Shown: in pieces, positions 9,212-34,665 of the stretch
Position numbering within the stretch: the first letter of the stretch is position 1
How the letters are laid out: each line of letters starts with the position of its first letter
The notes under the pieces: generated by a model
The model's input: the letters and a program-made list of their open reading frames with translations, nothing else
What the model was told of the DNA's origin: nothing
The model's database searches: none
Made by a program: the position numbers and the translations under genes
Source: Escherichia phage vB_EcoM-ZQ1
Sequence record: MW650886.1
Direction: 5' to 3' (one strand)
Length of the DNA: 64,000 bases

Positions 9212-10543
9212 ATGGTTGCCAAGAGCATTACTGTAACGGACTTTGTCAACACTGACCATAAACAGTTTTCTGTGGTCAACAGCATCCGTCAAATCCCTCA
9301 GCTGATTGACAGTCTCAAGCCAAGCCAGCGCAAGATCCTTTTCGCTGCTCTTGAGTACAACAAGGAGGAGATTGTTGACCGCCTTGGTATGTTCGCCGCC
9401 GCTCGGACCAACTACAAGTCTGGTGGGGAGAACATGAGCGGCACTATCGTGAACATGGCCCAGGGGTTCCCAGGTACGAACAACATCCCGTACTTTGACC
9501 GCGATGGCCAGTTTGGTTCTATCATGGGGCGTGATGCTTCATCTGCCCGATACATATCCGTCGCTGTATCTGACGTTATCCGCAAGATCTTCCGCAAGGA
9601 GGATGAGGGTATCTTGGAATACAACTACCTTGGTGAAGAAAGGCTGGAGCCGAAGTTCTTTCTACCCATCCTGCCCATGTTCCTGGTGAATGGGATCAAT
9701 GGTATCGGCACCGGATATTCCACCGACACCCCGTGTCATTGCGTTAAGTCCGTGCTGAATGCCCTGAGAGCGCTTCTCCGTGGCGAAGACCCGAAAGACT
9801 TAAAACCGTACTGGAACGGCTTCAAAGGAGAGACAGGCTATACTGAGGAAGGAAGAGCATACAGTCGCGGCATCTTCCGTCGCGTCAATGCCACCACCCT
9901 GCATATCACCGAAGTCCCAGTGGGCTGGTTTGCCAAAACCTATGAGACCAAGGTGTTGCTGCCTCTGTACAAGGCAGGTATCCTCACCGAGTACGCCAAC
10001 GACACGACGGAAGATGGCTGGGATATCACGGTTGTGTTTAAGCGCGGCGAACTCTCTAAGCTGAGTGACGAGCAGGTTGAGCAGATGTTCAAACTGTATT
10101 CAGCTACCAAGCCTGTGTGGACAGCATGGGATGAAGACGGTGTTATTCATCGTTATTCTGGTTGGCGGGACATGTTGCTACCGTTCTTCAATTATCGCCT
10201 ATCACGGTACGAAGACCGTCGCCAGTATCTGTTGAAGGACATGGCAGACAGGATCCGCAAGCTGGGTGACCGGGCGGTGTTCATTGAATGGGCGACGCGT
10301 GTTGATCTCCGCCAAAAGATTGACGTGCTGAAGTCTCTGTTCATGCAGGACTACCCGGACTTTGGTGGTGATCTTGACGAGTTGTTCAAGATGCCTCTGT
10401 CGTCTATTACTCTGGACGCCCGTGAGCGCCTACTCAAGCAGATTGAGAACCTTGAAGCACAACATAAGGAATTAAGTAAGAAAGAGGACATCGATCTTTA
10501 CACTGAAGACCTTGATGACCTTGAAAAGGCTCTTGGCCTATAA
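9212..10543 (+). CDS. DNA topoisomerase II medium subunit (T4 gp52-like, GyrA-type)
   Basis: ATG at 9212 just after the gp39-like stop; N-terminal LKPSQRKILFAA resembles the GyrA/ParC breakage-reunion motif. Confidence 0.8.
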   Translation: MVAKSITVTDFVNTDHKQFSVVNSIRQIPQLIDSLKPSQRKILFAALEYNKEEIVDRLGMFAAARTNYKSGGENMSGTIVNMAQGFPGTNNIPYFDRDGQFGSIMGRDASSARYISVAVSDVIRKIFRKEDEGILEYNYLGEERLEPKFFLPILPMFLVNGINGIGTGYSTDTPCHCVKSVLNALRALLRGEDPKDLKPYWNGFKGETGYTEEGRAYSRGIFRRVNATTLHITEVPVGWFAKTYETKVLLPLYKAGILTEYANDTTEDGWDITVVFKRGELSKLSDEQVEQMFKLYSATKPVWTAWDEDGVIHRYSGWRDMLLPFFNYRLSRYEDRRQYLLKDMADRIRKLGDRAVFIEWATRVDLRQKIDVLKSLFMQDYPDFGGDLDELFKMPLSSITLDARERLLKQIENLEAQHKELSKKEDIDLYTEDLDDLEKALGL

Positions 10544-10547
10544 CATC

Positions 10548-10565
10548 GGAGGGGTTCGCCCCTCC
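10548..10565 (+). promoter_or_regulatory. intercistronic UUCG-tetraloop hairpin (ggagggg-TTCG-cccctcc) with no U-tract, directly upstream of the next RBS
   Basis: 7-bp perfect stem read directly; followed by GGAGGG RBS and the ATG at 10585. Confidence 0.5.
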
Positions 10566-10584
10566 TCACCCGGAGGGTTGCGCT

Positions 10585-10872
10585 ATGTTCTATCTCCGTT
10601 CTGCAGCACCTGTGGTATTCATCATTTCCCTATTTGATTTCTTGGTTCCTCGCTTTATCAAAGAAGAGGTAGCGTTTGGTCTCTATGGTGAGACGGAAGA
10701 CCCAGAGGTCGATGAATATTACCCAATGTGCGCCCTGAAAGATATCGAGGAAGGGGAAGATGTTGCAATGGTCGGCACCATGCGTTCTTTCAATCTGTTT
10801 GGGCTTGCACTCTTTCCGAAACTGGTTGGTGAACTGCGCCCCTACGATCCTGAAGCCACTGTAGATGGTTAA
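10585..10872 (+). CDS. hypothetical protein
   Basis: 95-aa ORF with a strong GGAGGG RBS. Confidence 0.45.
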   Translation: MFYLRSAAPVVFIISLFDFLVPRFIKEEVAFGLYGETEDPEVDEYYPMCALKDIEEGEDVAMVGTMRSFNLFGLALFPKLVGELRPYDPEATVDG

Positions 10873-10919
10873 TCATAACATAGCTTCTGAGCCCTAAACT
10901 TCTGTCTACGGATGATTCC

Positions 10920-11129
10920 TTGTATTTTCATTGTCCTGGGTGTGGTATACTTCATCTATATCGCATTAAGGGCGAAACCCAAGGTCCGATGTGGATGTGG
11001 AACAACAATGTTATTGAGCCTACGTTCACACCGAGCCTGCTGGTGAATGCAACTGATCCAGCATTATTTTGCCATCTGTTCCTGACCGACGGCAAATACA
11101 ATTCCTCGGAGACTGTTTCCATGATCTGA
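10920..11129 (+). CDS. hypothetical small protein
   Basis: 69-aa ORF with CPGCG near the N-terminus; ORF only. Confidence 0.3.
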   Translation: MYFHCPGCGILHLYRIKGETQGPMWMWNNNVIEPTFTPSLLVNATDPALFCHLFLTDGKYNSSETVSMI

Positions 11130-11188
11130 AGAACCAGACAGTGGATATGGTCGACATCTCTGAACCTGAAATTTGGATTGAATAGATT

Positions 11189-11599
11189 ATGAAATTACTG
11201 GGATATTTTCGTGAACTCCCAACGGGAACTGAAGGCAAGTTGTTCTCACAGGTGAAGGGGGATGACATTGGTGATACGATGATTCCCCTGTACACTCGTG
11301 AACTTCCTGTCGAAGGTGCCTGGGAGCGCCGTGTGGTCGCTGCCGCCAACAAATATGGTGATGTAATCGTCGTTGCTGACCGTCACCACAGCCGATTCAT
11401 GAACAGCCAGCTCAAGATCCTGAAAGAAGCAGGCGTCATTAAATCCACCCATACCCGCGAACAGGGCTTCATCGACAACCAGGGCAACTTCCTCACTCGT
11501 GAAGAGGCGTGCATCGTAGCCCGTGAAGCTGGACAGATCAATCAGGTGCGCCTGAAGACAACCCCTTTCCGCGAACTCTTTTCCGAAGACCTCTATTGA
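11189..11599 (+). CDS. hypothetical protein
   Basis: 136-aa ORF. Confidence 0.45.
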   Translation: MKLLGYFRELPTGTEGKLFSQVKGDDIGDTMIPLYTRELPVEGAWERRVVAAANKYGDVIVVADRHHSRFMNSQLKILKEAGVIKSTHTREQGFIDNQGNFLTREEACIVAREAGQINQVRLKTTPFRELFSEDLY

Positions 11600-11605
11600 A
11601 GAAAA

Positions 11606-11625
11606 AGGCGGTATTATTACCGCCT
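11606..11625 (+). promoter_or_regulatory. stem-loop (aggcggta-TTAT-taccgcct) after the stop at 11599; possible terminator or RNA-stability element
   Basis: 8-bp stem read directly; downstream tract only partly T-rich. Confidence 0.4.
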
Positions 11626-11649
11626 CGACCCCTTGTTTGGTAACATCAA

Positions 11650-11892
11650 ATGAGCCCAGAATTTGAAAATCTGTTCGAGCGATGCTTCGAACCAGGTTCT
11701 GTGTCCGGTTACATGGACCGCCTTTGCACTGCCATTGTAATACGCCTTGCTGCCAAGGGTATCGTTGTCAACACCATTATCAACAATGGGAACAACTTTA
11801 TCATGCAGATGACTGATTATCACCACCGCACAGGCATCATCCAGGTGTCATGTGTTGACAACAGCATTATTGAATGGAGACAGTACGCATGA
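11650..11892 (+). CDS. hypothetical protein
   Basis: 80-aa ORF. Confidence 0.35.
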   Translation: MSPEFENLFERCFEPGSVSGYMDRLCTAIVIRLAAKGIVVNTIINNGNNFIMQMTDYHHRTGIIQVSCVDNSIIEWRQYA

Positions 11893-12488
11893 CAACTTAT
11901 GTAATCAATGGTGGTGATCTACTGAAAGCCGCCTGTAGCTTCAATCTGATCGACATCTTTGCCCACGGTGCCAACTGTTGGTCTACCATGGGCGCGGGCA
12001 TTGCTCTGCACATCGGTAACAACTTCCCAGCCCTGCGTGAAGTCGATGCGAACGACCCTCGTGGTCCAGAGCAACGCCTGGGTGGCATGTCCTATGCATT
12101 TGACCACAGCACTGGTGTCTGGGGCGCGAACCTCTACACTCAGTTTTATCCAGGTCCGAACGCTCGCATGCCGTCTGTCATCAGTTCTGTTCAGATGTTG
12201 TTTGAGCAGGTTCACGAAATTGTGGAAGCAACTAAAGACGAAACCGTCTATGTCGGCCTGCCTGCTATCGGTTGTGGTATTGGTGGTCTGAACCTCTACA
12301 GTGTAGTGCGCCATATCAATCGAATCTCTGAAAGCGTGTATGAAGAGACCCGCCGTCGTGTCGTCCCAGTCTTCTATATCAGGGAAGGAGACGGATTCGA
12401 TGATGATCTGATGGAACTTTCTCATCTGGACACAGAAGGTATCATGATTGTCGAAGATGAGCAAGAAATCATCGACGAGGAGGCGTAA
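11889..12488 (+). CDS. macro-domain protein (ADP-ribose binding/hydrolase family)
   Basis: ATGA overlap at 11889; motifs DIFAHGANCWSTMGAGIALHI (N-A-A-N ... G-G-G-V-like) and GLPAIGCGIGGL match the macro-domain signature. Confidence 0.65.
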   Translation: MTTYVINGGDLLKAACSFNLIDIFAHGANCWSTMGAGIALHIGNNFPALREVDANDPRGPEQRLGGMSYAFDHSTGVWGANLYTQFYPGPNARMPSVISSVQMLFEQVHEIVEATKDETVYVGLPAIGCGIGGLNLYSVVRHINRISESVYEETRRRVVPVFYIREGDGFDDDLMELSHLDTEGIMIVEDEQEIIDEEA

Positions 12489-13121
12489 ATGTACAAGTCT
12501 AATTTCCTTGCAGTTGCCGACAGCGAAACCCTGGGGCGCTGGGATGATGCAGTCATGCTGTCTTGGGCACACACCATCGCCGACCTGACCAAGCGTTATA
12601 CTCTTCAGCAGCTGGTTGAGGAGCGCACGACGTTCATTAAGCTGAATGTCAAAGAGCAGATCGAACTCGGTCGCGTGAAGGACCAGGGGACGGTAGAATG
12701 GTGGTTGGGGACGGGTAAACGTAACCCGTGTGATGCGGCTCGCGCCGTCAGTCTGTACCCCAAGGAAGATGACATCTCTATCTTCCAGCTGGCCGATGAA
12801 ATCCGCAAGGGTTGTCATCGTCTTGGGGTAGACCCGCGCTCGGTTGACTGGTGTGATCGCAACCTGTTTGATCTGCGCAAGGCTCAGCACATCATTGAGG
12901 TGACATGTAAGCAGGACTCCAACGAGCCTTGGGATTACCACCACACCTTCGACATCGTGAGCTGGCTGAAGGGTGTTGGGCAGCAGGATCGGTATGCTGG
13001 CATCAAGGCATGGGAACTGGAAGGTATGGTCTATCATGACCCTCGTTATGACGCTGCGCTTGACTGGCTGCGTATTCAGAAGACCATGGAAGATCTGATG
13101 GGTCTGGAGGTTGTGGGATGA
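12489..13121 (+). CDS. DEDDh-type 3'-5' exonuclease (DnaQ-like; T4 DexA-like candidate)
   Basis: N-terminal AVADSET (D-x-E Exo I motif) and C-terminal YHDPRYDAALD (H-x4-D Exo III motif). Confidence 0.6.
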   Translation: MYKSNFLAVADSETLGRWDDAVMLSWAHTIADLTKRYTLQQLVEERTTFIKLNVKEQIELGRVKDQGTVEWWLGTGKRNPCDAARAVSLYPKEDDISIFQLADEIRKGCHRLGVDPRSVDWCDRNLFDLRKAQHIIEVTCKQDSNEPWDYHHTFDIVSWLKGVGQQDRYAGIKAWELEGMVYHDPRYDAALDWLRIQKTMEDLMGLEVVG

Positions 13122-13420
13122 TTGTATTCACTGTCATCGGTGTGATCGTAACAGCTGGGGTGTTCACAGCCATATTGGGCTACCTGTACTTCATGTTCCT
13201 TCATCCGTTATTTCAGGCGTTCAGTCTCACGAATTGGTACTTGGCCTGCCTAAAGGCCGACGGCGGCGTGAACATGGCCTCTCTTCCTTACTGGCGGCTG
13301 GTAGCGCATTACTACTCGGTCGGTGGCTGGCCTGGGGAAAGGACATGGAACTCTATCGGTGAGTGGTATGGAATAGGTCGATGGCGTATATTCCCTGATG
13401 AAGACGATCAAGCCCCGTGA
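13118..13420 (+). CDS. small membrane protein
   Basis: ATGA overlap; N-terminal hydrophobic helix IVFTVIGVIVTAGVFTAILGYLYF. Confidence 0.4.
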   Translation: MIVFTVIGVIVTAGVFTAILGYLYFMFLHPLFQAFSLTNWYLACLKADGGVNMASLPYWRLVAHYYSVGGWPGERTWNSIGEWYGIGRWRIFPDEDDQAP

Positions 13421-13430
13421 GGGGCTTTTC
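13411..13430 (+). terminator. rho-independent terminator (agcccc-GTGA-ggggct then TTTC), GNRA-type loop
   Basis: hairpin overlaps the stop codon at 13418-13420; argues against the 13398 start of the next ORF. Confidence 0.55.
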
Positions 13431-13484
13431 TATATCCTGGATAGAGTATCATTGGTTCACCAACGAATCCTCGGGAGAGGTGAT

Positions 13485-13826
13485 ATGAAACGTTCGGTTG
13501 TTGTAAATGACATCACGAGATTGATAAACCTTGTCAAAGATGTGTTTCCACAACAGGTGGATGTCGAGTACGTGGGGAAGAACGGGAAGTGCTATCAGGT
13601 TGCTCTACTTCTGAAGCACGTGTATCCCCAAGCAGAGATACATTACAGTCAGACCGAAGGTCATGTGTATACTCTGATTGATGGGCATTACTACGACATC
13701 GACGGCATCCACTTCAGTGTCCCACCGGATACGTGTTTGCTCGAACACAACAGAGGCCATAAACCCCATCGCTGGCATAAAGGGTTTGTGAACGTACCGA
13801 TTTTAGAATGGTTGAGGAGACCATAA
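13485..13826 (+). CDS. hypothetical protein
   Basis: ATG at 13485 preceded by GGAGAGG and downstream of the terminator; the ORF-track start at 13398 lies inside the terminator. Confidence 0.4.
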
Positions 13827-14386
13827 TGGCAGGAATTGTGAAGTATCTGGGAGACACCCACCTTGGGCACAAGAAGATCTTCAAGCCCCGTGGGTTCGAT
13901 ACCCAAGAGGCGCATGATGCTGCAGTTATCGACAGTATCTTTCAGGGGCTGAAGTCTCGAGACGTCCTTGAACTTGCAGGCGACATCTGCTTCATCGGGG
14001 CTGAGGGGTTCATTCGCCTGATGCGCGAGGGTGCCAAGCGGAATATTGATGAGTTCAAGCGCCGCCCGGTTCCCGATGACTGGCGACCGAACTTTATCAT
14101 CAGGGTGGCGCAAGGCAACCATGACAGATTCAAGATGTTGATGCAGCTGTATCAAGAGGGATGGATTAGCTCCTTTGGTGCGATGTATGAGCGTGATACC
14201 CCGGTTGGTTGTGTGCTGACCACTCACGTTCCTTATCAATTAGGCCGCTGGGCTTATAATATCCATGGTCATCTTCACAGTAAAATGCGTGAAGAACGTG
14301 AATACCTGAACTGCAGCTGGGAACAATTCAAGCGCCCTGTGACATTGGCCGAGCTGCTCTACACCAATCTGGGGATTGAAATATGA
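13826..14386 (+). CDS. calcineurin-like metallophosphoesterase
   Basis: TAATG overlap start at 13826; motifs YLGDTHLGH (GDxHG), AGDICFIG (GDxx), QGNHD (GNHD/E), HGHLH. Confidence 0.65.
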
Positions 14387-14700
14387 AAATTTATTTTCCT
14401 GGCCAAAAGGTGCCTTCTGAAGTGCAGAAGGTCACAATCACAGGCTACCGGAAAGGGGATCCATATCTGCGCTTCTCCTCTCCATGTATCGTGAAGCAAA
14501 CTAAAACGGGTTATTATATCAGGCCGATTGTGTTGATGGGCTGTGTAATGACATTCAGAGCTTCCTGTGAACACGTTCTTATACAAGGAAGTCCGAACAT
14601 CGAAGGTGGAGAAACCCACATGAACTGCAAGCCGATTATCCCGACATGGTTGATTATTGGTGTGCTTTCCGTTTTAGCTCTGAAAGGAGTATTGTCATGA
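14383..14700 (+). CDS. hypothetical protein with C-terminal TM helix
   Basis: ATGA overlap; C-terminal [17 protein letters not shown] is hydrophobic. Confidence 0.4.
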
Positions 14701-15035
14701 AAAAGCCGCGTATTACAGGACACCAACTCTTGGTTCTCTACGGGATGGAGAACTTTGAGAAAGGTCATTGCCGTTATGGTGAATGGTACTTGCATCCCAA
14801 ATCCTGGACCAATGACAAGGGCAACACCGTCTGGACGTTCCAGGTATGCCCGAACACTGGTGGTTTCACCTCCGTCAAAGGCGACCCATGGGACACCCGC
14901 ACAGGGGCTTCCCTGCTAGCCAAGGGGTTGATCGAACCAGCTGGCTCAATGGTTCATGACGGTTCTTACGTGAACTGGCCGAACACTGAGGTGACGTTCT
15001 ATCGCCTGACTGAACTCGGTAAATCTTATCTCTGA
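14697..15035 (+). CDS. hypothetical protein
   Basis: ATGA overlap at 14697 (MKKPRITG...). Confidence 0.4.
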   Translation: MKKPRITGHQLLVLYGMENFEKGHCRYGEWYLHPKSWTNDKGNTVWTFQVCPNTGGFTSVKGDPWDTRTGASLLAKGLIEPAGSMVHDGSYVNWPNTEVTFYRLTELGKSYL

Positions 15036-15060
15036 ATAAAGATTCAGCGGTTATTGAAGA

Positions 15061-15091
15061 AGGGGGAGTATATACTTCCCCTTAGTTTATT
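15061..15091 (+). terminator. rho-independent terminator (9-bp stem, ATAT loop, then TAGTTTATT)
   Basis: hairpin read directly about 25 nt after the stop at 15035. Confidence 0.55.
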
Positions 15092-15105
15092 AAGAGGAAC
15101 CGGAA

Positions 15106-15420
15106 ATGACCCCATTAAAAGAAATGTATGAGCGTCTGGCTGAACTACAGGCGAAGGAAAAGCGCTTCTCAGAAGAAGAGTCTGAAATCGCCGAGCTGAA
15201 CAACCTGATTGCCACTCGTGAGAAGTACCTGCATCGCTACATTAATCACCCGCCGCGCATGGTAGACCGCGTCAGCACTATCATGGACCTGGATGAAGTT
15301 ACTCCTGGCAAAGAAATCATTGTCAGGGAAGTCCACCAGATGGTCGCCATGGGTCAGATCTTTGGTCGTGCAGACCAAGACGACATGATCTTCCTCCTTG
15401 AAAAGAAACTGGTGATGTGA
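15106..15420 (+). CDS. hypothetical protein
   Basis: 104-aa ORF with AAGAGG RBS. Confidence 0.45.
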   Translation: MTPLKEMYERLAELQAKEKRFSEEESEIAELNNLIATREKYLHRYINHPPRMVDRVSTIMDLDEVTPGKEIIVREVHQMVAMGQIFGRADQDDMIFLLEKKLVM

Positions 15421-15926
15421 TGGCTATCAAACCCCGTATGTTATTTGCGCATATGCGCTCGGCTCATGCATACGCTCTGTCCAGCTATGCCCAGCGCCTG
15501 AAGGTCGGCTGTGTTATCGTTGACCCGCGTGTTGACCAGCCCCTGTCTATCGGTTGGAACGGGACTGCTCCTGGCGCTCCTAATGTCTGTGAGAAGGAAG
15601 TAGACGGTCAACTGGTATCGGTGGGTGTTATCCACGCCGAGGAGAATGCTCTGAGCAAACTCCCCCAGCACACTGAAGACTGTTGTGGCCTGGTGATGTT
15701 TGTCACTCATAGTCCATGCCCAGAGTGCACCCGTCGTATTATCGGCAGTGGCAAGATCGCTAAAGTATTCTATGACCGACCATATCGTATCATAGACGGC
15801 ATTATTGAAATGCTGGCTGCTGGGATTGAAGTGTATCGCATGGTCGATCAGATTGTTGTAGTCCAGCATTCTGTGAAGAACGGCGAACTGGTATCCACCC
15901 CTGTTTTAGTGAACCCTGACAAATAA
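15420..15926 (+). CDS. dCMP deaminase (cytidine/deoxycytidylate deaminase zinc-binding family)
   Basis: HAEENAL (H-A-E) and SPCPEC (P-C-x-x-C) zinc-binding motifs; start overlaps the upstream stop (GTG at 15417, ATG at 15420). Confidence 0.8.
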   Translation: MAIKPRMLFAHMRSAHAYALSSYAQRLKVGCVIVDPRVDQPLSIGWNGTAPGAPNVCEKEVDGQLVSVGVIHAEENALSKLPQHTEDCCGLVMFVTHSPCPECTRRIIGSGKIAKVFYDRPYRIIDGIIEMLAAGIEVYRMVDQIVVVQHSVKNGELVSTPVLVNPDK

Positions 15927-15936
15927 GGAATTTATC

Positions 15937-16344
15937 ATGCGTTATGTAGATCGTATGCTCGGCAAAGACGAGCACGTTATTGCCTTCACCCGCCCGACTT
16001 GGTGGAGCGGTTTTTGGATTTACGTTCTGGTTATTTTAACGTTTATCCCAACATTTGGATTCAGCTTGTTATTTCTGATACCAACAATTTTAAATGTATT
16101 GACAACTGAATTCGCTGTGACTAACAAGCGTGTCATCGTCAAACGTGGTTTCATCCGTCGTGATGCTGATGAGTTGCGCATCGGTAAGGTGGAGACAGTG
16201 AAGGTTGATCAGTCCATCACAGGCCGCATCTTGGGCTTCTCAACAATCAGCGTGATCGGTACGGGCGGCACCCGCCTGCTGGCCAAGGGTTGTGCTGGTG
16301 GTAATGCGTTCCGTCAGAAGATCTACGATCACCTAGAAGACTGA
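15937..16344 (+). CDS. membrane protein with bacterial PH-like domain (YdbT/DUF304-like architecture)
   Basis: two TM helices (WWSGFWIYVLVILTFIP...LLFLIPTILNVL) followed by a soluble domain; family assignment is from pattern recall only. Confidence 0.4.
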   Translation: MRYVDRMLGKDEHVIAFTRPTWWSGFWIYVLVILTFIPTFGFSLLFLIPTILNVLTTEFAVTNKRVIVKRGFIRRDADELRIGKVETVKVDQSITGRILGFSTISVIGTGGTRLLAKGCAGGNAFRQKIYDHLED

Positions 16345-16346
16345 TT

Positions 16347-16559
16347 ATGATCACTTCAGGTTACACCATCGATCTTTATTGTGAATGCTCAGATTGCAAG
16401 GCATGCAGTTGGGCTTGGGAAGAGCATCACACCAAGCGCGGGTTCAAACAATACACTGGTGAGACTTGGGGTGATTGTGTCAGGCAGGCTCGGGCTGATG
16501 GTTGGCAAATCGGGCGCGACAGACATACCTGTTACGCCCCTGGTCACAAGAGAAGTTAA
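16347..16559 (+). CDS. small cysteine-rich protein (possible zinc-binding)
   Basis: 70 aa with CECSDCKAC ... CY cysteines. Confidence 0.4.
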   Translation: MITSGYTIDLYCECSDCKACSWAWEEHHTKRGFKQYTGETWGDCVRQARADGWQIGRDRHTCYAPGHKRS

Positions 16560-24935: not shown

Positions 24936-25004
24936 CTTCAATAGATTATTGGTGGGTGTGGGATCTTGCTTAGCCGATAATGACCGCAAATGTTTCTGTA
25001 TCCA

Positions 25005-25565
25005 TCATGAACCCTCCGCCCAGACAAAGCCGTATTTGTTCAGTAGATCCACGGTTTCACCACGAGCGCGAGCCACGATAGATTCTACTGATTCTTCCAC
25101 CTCGAGTGGTGGGCAACCAGCCTTTTCGTACGTGTTAAGCAAGAGAGCAAGTTCTTTTACGAACTCTTCTTGTTCCTCTCCTCCAAAGAACCACATCCGC
25201 AGATCGTCGCGTTCCCCGTGCTTGTTCAGAGAAGCCATATTCACGTACACGTAATCGTTTTTCTGAACAACGTCATTTATCTCCGGCCAATGCAACCCAG
25301 TCATCGCATAATTGAAGAATTCCGAAGGGGTGACTTCATCCGACAAATAATACAAACGGAAGTCACCGCTGGGGCCATGTTTGCAAGTTCTATCCAGCAT
25401 TATTTTGTGGATGTCAACACGGTCTCGCTTCAAGACTTCCCGTTTCTTCAGTCGACCTCTCAGCCAGGCACTGCCAATACACAAAAGAACGAAAGCAGTA
25501 GCACCAGTGAGTATGTTGAAAGAATCAATAATGTTCATAAGATCCCCGAAGTGATAAAGGGGCAT
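25005..25565 (-). CDS. membrane-anchored protein (N-terminal TM helix, soluble C-terminal domain)
   Basis: GGAGGGG RBS upstream of the ATG at 25565; N-terminal NILTGATAFVLLCIGSAWL is hydrophobic. Confidence 0.45.
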   Translation of the reverse strand: MPLYHFGDLMNIIDSFNILTGATAFVLLCIGSAWLRGRLKKREVLKRDRVDIHKIMLDRTCKHGPSGDFRLYYLSDEVTPSEFFNYAMTGLHWPEINDVVQKNDYVYVNMASLNKHGERDDLRMWFFGGEEQEEFVKELALLLNTYEKAGCPPLEVEESVESIVARARGETVDLLNKYGFVWAEGS

Positions 25566-25579
25566 AAGCCCCTCCGATG

Positions 25580-26188
25580 TTATTTGCTCAGGCTGGCGAG
25601 GTAGTTGTCGGCTTCGATAGACGACGGGCTGTTGGCGGAGTAGCTCGAATCAGCGATTTCGGTTTCGCGCAGGATGGCATCGATATCGATGGTGGTCATA
25701 CCAGCGGCATAATCGATATCTTCAGGGAGCACCAGACCCAGGTCGTTCGTCTCTTTCTGAACACGAACCAGCTCGAGATTGGACTTGACTTCGTCCAGTT
25801 TGTCACCCAGCTGGATGATCGCACCGTTCAGTTTGTCGCTGCTTGCTTCGATGTCCTTCACCTGAGCCAACAGGGCTTCACCGATACGGCGGCGATGCAG
25901 AATAATCAGGGCGTCGGCGCGGGTTGGTGTGACACCACGAGCGATGGCGTCCTTCAGAACTTCTTCGCGCTTGGCGGCTTCACTCAGGTTCTGTTCTGCG
26001 GTCTTCTTCAGTTTGACGCCGTTGCGGACGTTGGTGACACGGGCTTCCTCCAGGCGACGGATTTCGTCAGACAGCTTGCGAGCAGCCAGGTTCAGGCGCT
26101 TTTCGGTGTCGGTCAGTTTATCCAGACCTGCGGTGACGTTGGCTTCAACAGTGGTGAAGATGCGTTTCAGTAAGTTTTTCAGTGACAT
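25580..26188 (-). CDS. PspA/IM30-family (phage-shock protein A / Vipp1-like) protein
   Basis: 202 aa; N-terminal amphipathic helix then long heptad-like coiled coil (LKNLLKRIFTTVEANVTAGLDKLTDTEKRL...) resembling PspA; GAGGA RBS. Confidence 0.55.
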   Translation of the reverse strand: MSLKNLLKRIFTTVEANVTAGLDKLTDTEKRLNLAARKLSDEIRRLEEARVTNVRNGVKLKKTAEQNLSEAAKREEVLKDAIARGVTPTRADALIILHRRRIGEALLAQVKDIEASSDKLNGAIIQLGDKLDEVKSNLELVRVQKETNDLGLVLPEDIDYAAGMTTIDIDAILRETEIADSSYSANSPSSIEADNYLASLSK

Positions 26189-26205
26189 CAGTGTGTAGTC
26201 CTCAG

Positions 26206-26547
26206 TTATTTCTTCGGGGGTTCAATTGAGGTGAAAGAATCCTTCCAACTCTTGAATTTTTCAACTAGGGCTTCTTCACCCAGCTCGTCATTTGACACGC
26301 TGTGAATATAGGCGAATGCTCCATAGCCGGATCCTGGCATAGCCTTGCAGATGCGCAGACTGACCAAAGAATCTCCTACGGAAACAAGATAGTGGTCACG
26401 ACGATTGTTCAGGGCATAGTGGTTGTCATGAAACTTGTCGATAACAACACAGTTCTGAGGTTCGACGTCAATCGGTAGCCCGTTGGCTTCGGATCCACCG
26501 CGCCCAAGCACGCAGCCTGGGAATAATGTTTCTACGAGTGTGGTCAT
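26206..26547 (-). CDS. hypothetical protein
   Basis: 113-aa ORF, co-oriented with the PspA-like gene. Confidence 0.45.
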   Translation of the reverse strand: MTTLVETLFPGCVLGRGGSEANGLPIDVEPQNCVVIDKFHDNHYALNNRRDHYLVSVGDSLVSLRICKAMPGSGYGAFAYIHSVSNDELGEEALVEKFKSWKDSFTSIEPPKK

Positions 26548-26776
26548 GGTCTGTTCCTTCTGTAAGTTCCCATGTATTATATGGGTGAATCGTTTAATGA
26601 ATTATTTGTTATGGAAACCCAGAGCCTTGTAGACTTCTTCACGATTTTAATTTCGGCCTGAGCCTCTGTGTGATTAATCCGGCGCTTGTGTTGTCGGGCG
26701 TCAATGGCATCGATTAGACAACGGATCTCAGCGCATCAGGGGCTTACCCAACAGCCAGTTGAAATACTCGCGCATG

Positions 26777-33056: not shown

Positions 33057-33622
33057 TTACGTTCTCCGTAGAATTTAACGAACGGTTCCCAACCATCAAA
33101 TGGATTGAGGAATTCGTAGTCCACTTTCATTTGGTCAATGAAAGCCTCTATATCGTCCTCTATGATACCAGCACGGTCGGCCTTTGAAATACGGGTGATA
33201 GGGCATTTCGTACTCAGCGCCCATTCATATTCCTGAGGGGTACGCAGATCACTCACGATATAATGGACGTGGGGGTTCTGCTCTACCAGAGGAAGCTGGA
33301 AGCGCTTGAAGAATGCCAGGAACAGATCGGGTTGTACGTAACGCAAGCCCGTATCGCTGCCTAGATGAAGCCAGATCTGCCGTGGAGTTAAGCCCTTGGG
33401 ATTATCAGGGTGCACGTAAGGAACGTCCTTCACGGCATCCTCTACCTCCGCTGGGAGCCATGGGTAGATGTAGTTGGCTACACGGCGCAGTTCATCAGAG
33501 AAAGAAAGGCGCTGTATGTCCATATCACCCTGTAAGTGGTGGTAACTGATCAGGGACTCCAAACAGAAGTCCTTACCGGAGCGCTTGCGCCCCGTAAAGA
33601 ATTCAAGATTTGGGTACATCAT
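33053..33622 (-). CDS. deoxynucleoside monophosphate kinase (T4 gp1-like)
   Basis: N-terminal P-loop FFTGRKRSGKD resembles the T4 gp1 signature. Confidence 0.7.
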   Translation of the reverse strand: MMYPNLEFFTGRKRSGKDFCLESLISYHHLQGDMDIQRLSFSDELRRVANYIYPWLPAEVEDAVKDVPYVHPDNPKGLTPRQIWLHLGSDTGLRYVQPDLFLAFFKRFQLPLVEQNPHVHYIVSDLRTPQEYEWALSTKCPITRISKADRAGIIEDDIEAFIDQMKVDYEFLNPFDGWEPFVKFYGERK

Positions 33623-34665
33623 ACTACACCTTCCAGGAACTTAGGATCAATGATCTTGCGGTCAACCGGGGAATGGGTGAGCGCGGTGTTCAAGCCATGA
33701 TCCTGAATCAGGTCCAGGTTAATGAGCTTTTCGTTCAGTTTACAGTGCAGACAGTACGCCATCTGTACAATCAGGCCGCGATCCGCATCGTATTCCTTCA
33801 GGTGAGCAACCACAGTTTCCCACGGGCTACCGATATCACAGTGATGAAGCACACCAGTGAACAGATTGCGGATATGGTTCTGGTTGGTCACGTTCGTGAA
33901 GTGAATCATGGAGTTGATGAACCCAGCTTCTACTTTGGTGTCCTTCGTGATCTTTCCCAGCTGCTTCTGGCTGACTTCATTGTTGTAGTAATGAAGATTG
34001 TTAGAGAATAGCTTGTACTGACCGACATCAACATCCAGCACCCGAGCAATCACTTCCTGAAGAATAGAGAACTCAATGAAGTTAATTGAACTCATCCCCC
34101 ACAGAACATCCTGTGAGCGGTTGATGACCGTCAGGTTCAGACGACCTTCAACGATGGCGAACAACAGAGCCAGGTTACACACCATGTCCTTAGTCTTTGC
34201 TTCGCCGCTCTCGCTGAACTTCGCCAGACCAGCATCCGAATCTAGAGCCGGGTCATAGATGGTGAGGTACGCCTGGCGAGTGTTTGGGTTCTTGCGCAGG
34301 CGGTTGATAACGCTATCCAGCTGGCCATGGGCGTACAGACGCGGACCATAAGCAGCTCGCCATGTTACCCCATCATCCGAAAAGTTAGCAGCGCGAGGCA
34401 ATACGCGTGACAGGAACTTTATGTCGTTGCGACCTGACAACACCCAGAAGGTCTCGCCGATGGCAGCGATAGCCGATGAGTTGCGACCTTCAACGGAGAG
34501 CCAGCGGTCACGAATATCGGAAACAGTGATCGTCACACCATCAAGGAAGCGGGTGCTATCAGTATTGATTTCAGCATTACCAGGATCAGATTCGATCCCG
34601 AATTCACGGATAGCCAAGACAGCCTGCTTCAGCATGTCATTGTTGTTAATTGCTTTGATTTCCAT
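33619..34665 (-). CDS. thymidylate synthase / pyrimidine hydroxymethylase family enzyme with about 100-aa C-terminal extension
   Basis: ThyA-fold motifs: ETFWVLSGRND, RKNPNTRQAYLTIYDP, catalytic-Cys region DMVCNLALLF (VCN instead of PCH), NRSQDVLWGMSSINF (R-S-x-D ... N); occupies the T4 gene 42 position. Confidence 0.75.
   Translation of the reverse strand: MEIKAINNNDMLKQAVLAIREFGIESDPGNAEINTDSTRFLDGVTITVSDIRDRWLSVEGRNSSAIAAIGETFWVLSGRNDIKFLSRVLPRAANFSDDGVTWRAAYGPRLYAHGQLDSVINRLRKNPNTRQAYLTIYDPALDSDAGLAKFSESGEAKTKDMVCNLALLFAIVEGRLNLTVINRSQDVLWGMSSINFIEFSILQEVIARVLDVDVGQYKLFSNNLHYYNNEVSQKQLGKITKDTKVEAGFINSMIHFTNVTNQNHIRNLFTGVLHHCDIGSPWETVVAHLKEYDADRGLIVQMAYCLHCKLNEKLINLDLIQDHGLNTALTHSPVDRKIIDPKFLEGVV

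Follow-up and report, generated by a model that had tools for sequence, protein, structure and literature searches.

The 64,000-nt window analysed here, from Escherichia phage vB_EcoM-ZQ1 (MW650886.1), is a segment of an Ackermannviridae genome with about 97% identity to Agtrevirus-like Ackermannviridae phages, and it contains a gene for a small stand-alone macrodomain protein that is probably the family's counterpart of T4 Tk.4/AdfM. All positions refer to this window, and residue numbers to the 199-aa form of the protein. The gene belongs to a series of small genes, all pointing the same way, that is flanked by topoisomerase II and dCMP deaminase (Table 1), and its open reading frame (ORF) was found, at 199 aa, exactly where an earlier sequence-only reading of the same DNA had placed it. 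That reading had also described an array of small early genes next to a DEDDh exonuclease and a metallophosphoesterase. Both neighbours were recovered and the co-directional run of small genes is real, whereas the word "early" has no support beyond gene order. Since promoter and terminator counts did not exceed the shuffled expectation, no claim about early timing is made beyond that order.

The start codon assigned to the macrodomain gene is ATG 11889, which is preferred because it follows a GGAGA Shine-Dalgarno sequence at 8-nt spacing, because it forms an ATGA overlap with the stop codon of the DUF7234 gene upstream, and because most database homologues are 199 aa long, with the N-terminus MTTYVI. 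The ORF list gives a longer, 204-aa form from ATG 11874, but this start was rejected, as it lacks a Shine-Dalgarno sequence of its own. The ATGA overlap suggests translational coupling with the upstream gene. At the other end, the stop codon TAA (12486-12488) abuts the ATG of the exonuclease gene, whose own Shine-Dalgarno sequence (GAGGAGG) is located inside the last codons of the macrodomain gene, in the part encoding the acidic tail. An antisense ORF of 372 aa (11919-13037, minus strand) falls into no PHROG family and has two well-supported genes on the strand facing it; it is most likely a shadow ORF. An Rfam scan of 10000-16500 returned no RNA element at gathering thresholds.

Table 1. Features of the macrodomain gene, its product and the adjoining genes, in window coordinates
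Feature	Position	Strand	Remarks
Small upstream gene, DUF7234, 80 aa	11650..11892	+	Pfam PF23881 E 2e-40; phrog_5593; stop overlaps the macrodomain start
Shine-Dalgarno GGAGA	11876..11880	+	8 nt before ATG 11889; sequence read directly
Macrodomain gene, AdfM/Tk.4-like stand-alone DarG-type	11889..12488	+	199 aa plus stop; coordinates checked by translation
HGANC motif (residues 26-30, Asn29) and first ADP-ribose/phosphate-binding loop MGAGIA (34-39)	11964..12005	+	47-homologue conservation
NLYTQ strand (81-85, ending in Gln85), then loop FYPGPNAR	12129..12167	+	Profile-to-PDB and MAFFT alignments
Second, glycine-rich diphosphate-binding loop PAIGCGIGG (125-133)	12261..12287	+	Aligned with DarG PPLGVGNGG and TARG1 PRIGCGLDR
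35-aa C-terminal extension REGDGFDDDLMELSHLDTEGIMIVEDEQEIIDEEA	12381..12485	+	15 acidic and 1 basic residues, net charge -14
DexA-type DEDDh exonuclease gene	12489..13121	+	phrog_255 E 1.3e-53; weak Pfam Rv2179c-like match; DexA in relatives' annotation
Metallophosphoesterase gene	13808..14386	+	phrog_547 E 1.3e-43; motifs GDxH, GD, GNHD and GHxH readable

Fold and family of the protein

The gene product is a genuine stand-alone macrodomain. It matches phrog_335 with an E value of 8.8e-64, and its homologues form a graded series in which those from about 50% identity downwards carry the Pfam domain PF01661 (Macro). The AlphaFold2 (AF2) model, predicted with high confidence (predicted local distance difference test (pLDDT) 96.8, predicted template modelling score (pTM) 0.92), displays the three-layer alpha/beta/alpha arrangement of the macro fold. 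Relatives are named in GenBank as "Tk.4 protein" (Ag3 and LHE287) or "putative ADP-ribose binding protein" (ChubbyThor).

Within the macrodomain superfamily, the nearest kin in both sequence and structure belong to the ALC1-like class of TARG1/DarG type. A family profile built from 47 homologue sequences and searched against the PDB ranked the DarG macrodomains of M. tuberculosis (5m3i, 8.8e-17) and T. aquaticus (5m31, 1e-15) first, followed by TARG1 (2.4e-13) and then by BT1257, SCO6735 (9.4e-12) and Poa1p, while MacroD-type and viral macrodomains scored far lower in both profile and structure matching. The sole NCBIfam match is the DarG antitoxin equivalog (E 4.3e-8), of which only the N-terminal macro part is covered (model positions 6-135 of 338), and the score of 32.8 bits is below the cut-off of 250. 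PADLOC returned two matches, the stronger to DarG (E 4.7e-7) and the other to the ThsA macro model (E 0.013); T4 Tk.4 likewise matches the PADLOC DarG model best.

Homologues are widespread, being detected by tblastn in 2672 of 50,697 phage records that include T4-like, Felixounavirus, Pseudomonas, Vibrio and other phages. Macrodomains as a whole occur in 41% of myoviruses and constitute the commonest ADP-ribose-processing domain in phages (PMC9503650, Iyer et al.). The gene is close to universal within Ackermannviridae: it was found at no less than 60% identity in about 249 records, compared with about 283 that carry the Ackermannviridae topoisomerase at the same threshold.

Active site

Three conserved segments hold the active-site motifs (Table 1). 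Twelve residues are invariant among the 47 homologues, namely His26, Gly27, Asn29, Cys30, Gly37, Gly65, Asn81, Leu82, Thr84, Gln85, Gly89 and Pro125. The MGAGIA loop has a single invariant Gly, its M, G, I and A being conserved in at least 90% of the sequences; in NLYTQ, the N, L, T and Q are invariant and the Y reaches at least 90%; in the second loop, the invariant P125 is accompanied by I127, G128, G130, I131, G132 and G133, each at 90% or above. Asn29 aligns with the conserved Asn of DarG and with N23 of the AdfM protein of phage PhiKZ (gp104). Replacement of this residue (N23A) lowers the activity of the PhiKZ enzyme (PMC13309987), and Asn27 of SCO6735 has been reported as the equivalent of the conserved Asn (PMC9411070).

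A distinctive position is Gln85, at which the NLYTQ strand ends in the AF2 model. Two independent alignments, one based on the hidden Markov model (HMM) profile and one made with MAFFT that took in DarG, TARG1 and PhiKZ gp104, both place NLYTQ on NFPTK of DarG and LITK of TARG1, so that Gln85 sits on the catalytic Lys of these enzymes (K80 and K84, respectively); the MAFFT alignment also places it on MFPTK of PhiKZ. Judging from the aligned homologues, the catalytic Lys is replaced by an invariant Gln throughout the T4-type family. The loop that follows appears to be about four residues longer than that of DarG, according to a count of 16 versus 12 residues from the Asn to the R-x-P-S anchor, a stretch that the aligners left ungapped. 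The Lys position of SCO6735 is likewise taken by a Gln (Gln85), which is locked by Asn27 and essential to the enzyme for hydrolysing thymidine-linked ADP-ribose on DNA; a water-mediated mechanism has been proposed for this enzyme, in which the loop is longer and mobile (PMC9411070). The equivalence between the two Gln residues is drawn by transitivity, through the DarG and TARG1 alignments made here and the published structural alignment (PMC9411070).

The acidic C-terminal extension

In Ackermannviridae homologues the core is followed by an extension of about 30-43 C-terminal residues, which T4 Tk.4 lacks. This extension is acidic throughout the clade (net charge -6 to -16); elsewhere in the family the tail is either missing or basic. 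It diverges faster than the core, and one homologue retains 91% identity in the core but only 41% in the tail. In the AF2 model, it is ordered as a helix-strand-helix unit with block-mean pLDDT values of 94-98, and the same full-length fold is predicted for the protein of Serratia phage phiMAM1 (template modelling (TM) score 0.83).

Relationship to characterised macrodomain proteins

The closest characterised relative is Tk.4 of phage T4, with which the protein shares 33% identity over 115 aa (BLASTP, E 2e-15), and neither the window nor the complete genome of a relative, Yersinia phage CAU_YEP3, holds another match to Tk.4. In a preprint from 2025, tk.4 emerged as the single hit of a T4 transposon library screened on a DarTG2 host (HIDEN-SEQ), and a clean knock-out sensitised T4 to DarTG2, upon which the gene was renamed adfM for anti-DarT factor Macrodomain (10.1101/2025.11.20.689424). 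The two proteins are stand-alone phage macrodomains of one sequence family that have HGxNC, MGxG, NLYTQ and IGxGIG in common. They differ in that T4 Tk.4 comprises 155 aa and has no C-terminal extension, while the window protein bears 35 additional acidic residues; the two also belong to different phage families and gene neighbourhoods, and the anti-DarTG2 phenotype is known for the T4 member. On the strength of its Tk.4 homology, its conserved motifs and its occurrence as a stand-alone phage gene, the protein would be assigned to the AdfM family.

PhiKZ gp104 was independently also named AdfM (Morgan et al., Cell Rep 2026) and has been shown in vitro to strip DarT2-made ADP-ribose from an oligonucleotide and to rescue DarT2 toxicity (PMC13309987). 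It too is a stand-alone DarG-like phage macrodomain with the key Asn (N23 in PhiKZ, N29 in the window protein), but the two share only 27% identity (E 6e-7), and the DarG-type Lys (FPTK) is retained in PhiKZ gp104 but is Gln in the window protein. PhiKZ gp104 is, moreover, imported into the phage nucleus. Ackermannviridae are not known to build such a nucleus.

Among cellular proteins, the DarG2 macrodomains (M. tuberculosis 5M3I, T. aquaticus 5M31/5M3E and Thermosipho DarTG 7OMU) are the best profile and structure matches and share the glycine loops and the Asn with the window protein. The latter is set apart from DarG2 by the lack of an adjacent darT, its neighbours being DUF7234 and DexA, and of a C-terminal DarT-binding domain, as well as by the change of DarG Lys80 to Gln and the apparently longer loop behind it. 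TARG1/OARD1 (4J5R and related entries) relies on a Lys84/Asp125 dyad, in place of which the window protein has Gln85 and Gly132. The known substrates of TARG1 and of yeast Poa1p (6LFQ) are protein-linked ADP-ribose, O-acetyl-ADP-ribose (OAADPr) and ADP-ribose-1''-phosphate (Appr1p). SCO6735 of Streptomyces coelicolor (5E3B) resembles the window protein at the active site: it is a member of the ALC1-like class in which a Gln, held by a conserved Asn, stands at the Lys position. It removes thymidine-linked ADP-ribose from DNA by hydrolysis and gives protection against DarT (PMC9411070). Unlike the window protein, however, it is encoded on a bacterial chromosome rather than by a phage, and the sequence around its Gln is Q-x-G instead of QFYPG. 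A functional parallel is also offered by AdfN (T4 30.3), a NADAR orphan antitoxin against DarTG1, which is likewise a phage antitoxin-like hydrolase that cleans the phage's own DNA, although its fold is unrelated and its substrates are guanosine adducts (PMC11825919).

Predicted function and alternative explanations

With the fold, family, conserved residues and context taken from this analysis, and phenotypes and activities from the literature on relatives, we infer the following substrate and role. The protein is likely an ADP-ribosylglycohydrolase of the DarG/TARG1/SCO6735 (ALC1-like) class, its activity being predicted, and would probably serve as a phage-carried orphan antitoxin-like enzyme that strips single-stranded DNA (ssDNA) of DarT2-type thymidine ADP-ribose. 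It would be made during infection from the small co-directional run of non-structural genes and would bind ADP-ribose that a host DarT2-type toxin has placed on thymidines of phage ssDNA. The MGAGIA and GCGIGG loops would hold the diphosphate, while Asn29 and Gln85 would position the distal ribose, and the bond between ribose and base could then be cut by a water-mediated, SCO6735-like mechanism rather than by a catalytic Lys. Release of ADP-ribose would return a replicable template and thereby permit phage growth on DarTG2 hosts. A role in ADP-ribose-directed counter-defence, by analogy with antitoxins against DNA ADP-ribosylation, had been put forward from the sequence alone, and the homology to T4 Tk.4/AdfM together with the DarG matches supports it.

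Several observations weigh against this interpretation. On its own, the protein scores 16.1 bits with PF01661, below the cut-off of 22, although the macro signature first read from the sequence proves real by phrog_335, the family profile, the PF01661 domains of homologues and the AF2 model. The 33% identity to T4 AdfM is low, and the substrate range of a macrodomain is not readable from sequence. Even for T4 AdfM, the enzymatic removal of ADP-ribose is the authors' inference, genetics alone having been reported (10.1101/2025.11.20.689424). For any member of Ackermannviridae, the proposed function would rest on relatives, and no paper linking Ackermannviridae to DarTG2 was found in the literature. 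The near-universal presence of the gene in the family fits a housekeeping role as well as it fits counter-defence. The natural substrate may also differ, given that genes annotated for thymidine hypermodification occur in the complete CAU_YEP3 genome (an aGPT-type thymine pyrophosphorylase, a pyridoxal phosphate (PLP) enzyme, a P-loop nucleotide kinase and a thymidylate-synthase-like gene), so that the target base of DarT2 is probably partly modified in Ackermannviridae. Finally, the protein lacks the catalytic Lys of the ALC1-like class that is present in DarG; this change is nevertheless no argument against activity, because Gln85 of SCO6735 occupies the same structural position and is essential for hydrolysis.

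Of the alternatives, a de-ADP-ribosylase with another or a broader macromolecular substrate, such as RNA modified by mRNA-ADP-ribosylating defence toxins, proteins ADP-ribosylated by host transferases or other modified bases, is the one to be taken most seriously, although it is rather unlikely. The evidence from fold and active site would be identical for such an enzyme, the close structural relatives TARG1 and SCO6735 act on proteins as well (PMC9411070), and the existence of undiscovered defences that ADP-ribosylate RNA or DNA has been raised in the work on NADAR (PMC11825919); on the other hand, the nearest characterised homologue was specific for DarTG2 in a genome-wide screen, and DarG is ranked first by the sequence models. 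Activity on small ADP-ribose derivatives, whether as a Poa1p-like ADP-ribose-1''-phosphate phosphatase ("A1pp phosphatase"), an O-acetyl-ADP-ribose deacetylase or a degrader or sponge of immune signals such as that of Thoeris, is doubtful. It has been argued that soluble derivatives may be what many viral macrodomains favour (PMC9503650, Iyer et al.), and Poa1p is a close structural match, but the names "phosphatase" and "O-acetyl-ADP-ribose deacetylase" that appear among relatives in databases are names transferred by similarity. The T4 AdfM phenotype concerns a DNA-modifying system, and the annotation of relatives showed no tRNA-splicing or KptA-type partner in the vicinity. The weak ThsA macro match, which could be cited in favour of interference with Thoeris, is at chance level, and the suggestion in the sequence-only reading that the protein counters ADP-ribose-signal defences has nothing further to draw on.

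The acidic extension raises the question of binding. The C-terminal domain of DarG and AdfB of phage ICP1 have been described as mimics of DNA that carry negative charge and occlude DarT (PMC11481870), and catalytically dead forms of SCO6735, DarG and TARG1 still inhibit DarT through interaction (PMC9411070). The charge and rapid evolution of the tail would be in keeping with a protein that obstructs DarT2 chiefly through binding, or that both binds it and acts catalytically, with the tail as an ssDNA mimic. Against this, the tail is predicted by AF2 to fold against the domain instead of being free, T4 AdfM works without any tail, and no similarity to the DarG C-terminal domain was found, as the NCBIfam match is confined to the macro part; blockade of DarT2 by binding is less probable still than action on small derivatives. 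Somewhat wider in scope, but also improbable, is the idea that the tail mimics ssDNA so as to occlude DarT2 or another DNA-binding defence enzyme, which would make the protein an eraser and a direct blocker at once, a miniature two-mode "DarG"; this arrangement may be convergent with the DarG C-terminal domain and ICP1 AdfB. Least probable of all is the tuning or reversal of ADP-ribosylation by the phage's own ADP-ribosyltransferases, a role that the initial reading had also entertained and that T4, with Tk.4 alongside three transferases (Alt, ModA and ModB), might bring to mind. No such transferase is annotated in the CAU_YEP3 genome, and tblastn at E <= 1, which offers BLAST sensitivity only and may let very divergent proteins escape, detected no homologue of T4 Alt, ModA, ModB, 30.3 (AdfN) or 61.2 (AdfA) in the window or in complete CAU_YEP3, an outcome that speaks against this role. 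Removal of DarT2-type ADP-ribose from phage DNA is the preferred reading.

Genomic neighbourhood

The 3.5-kb stretch around the macrodomain gene matches Escherichia phages A221, LHE287 and PC3 at 96-97% identity and the Agtrevirus phages Ag3, ChubbyThor and MK-13 at about 90%, while Yersinia phage CAU_YEP3 is collinear with the whole window. In the exonuclease encoded immediately downstream, the DxE and Hx4D motifs are readable. No functional link between the macrodomain protein and DexA is claimed, as an extra ORF parts the two genes in CAU_YEP3. The array of small genes around the macrodomain gene is a hotspot at which genes are gained and lost.

The stretch from dexA to a YunG-like gene (window 13111-13485; CAU_YEP3 L007 11493-12781) varies among relatives, and an additional QueC-like or "alpha hydrolase" gene present in CAU_YEP3 and ChubbyThor is absent from the window. 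Upstream of the DUF7234 gene, 11189-11599 (plus strand) encodes a 136-aa protein that matches phrog_839 (E 1.1e-50) and no Pfam family, and that is named "Arn.3", "putative tRNA processing enzyme" or "C-N hydrolase" in relatives. The thymidine-hypermodification genes of CAU_YEP3 are found at L005 29277-30512, L006 27639-28841 and 36681-38279, and L007 31803-32852, the last corresponding to about 33600-34665 in the window.

A further variable region of about 1.8 kb (24969-26743) is missing in CAU_YEP3 and present in Ag3, Gloob and MK-13. It contains three minus-strand ORFs (25005-25565, 25580-26188 and 26206-26547), of which the middle one (202 aa) belongs to the PspA/IM30 family (PF04012, 43.1 bits, above the cut-off) and the two flanking ones have no Pfam match. 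The Ag3 ORF underlying the PspA/IM30 match bears the annotation "e.6". From its sequence, the middle ORF is predicted to encode a phage PspA-like membrane-stress protein.

Biological significance

The gene is an expected member of a very common phage family whose counter-defence role has already been published, and the particular features of the window protein are its acidic tail and its Gln-type active site. If the proposed function is true, DarT2-type DNA ADP-ribosylation can be erased by a factor that Ackermannviridae themselves encode, which would help to predict their host range on DarTG2 strains. The Ackermannviridae genera Kuttervirus and Agtrevirus infect Salmonella, E. coli O157 and Shigella and are used for biocontrol. 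The finding made in T4 would then extend to a second large family of myoviruses. The widespread T4-type AdfM family operates with a Gln-type active site like that of SCO6735, not with the Lys-type site of DarG.

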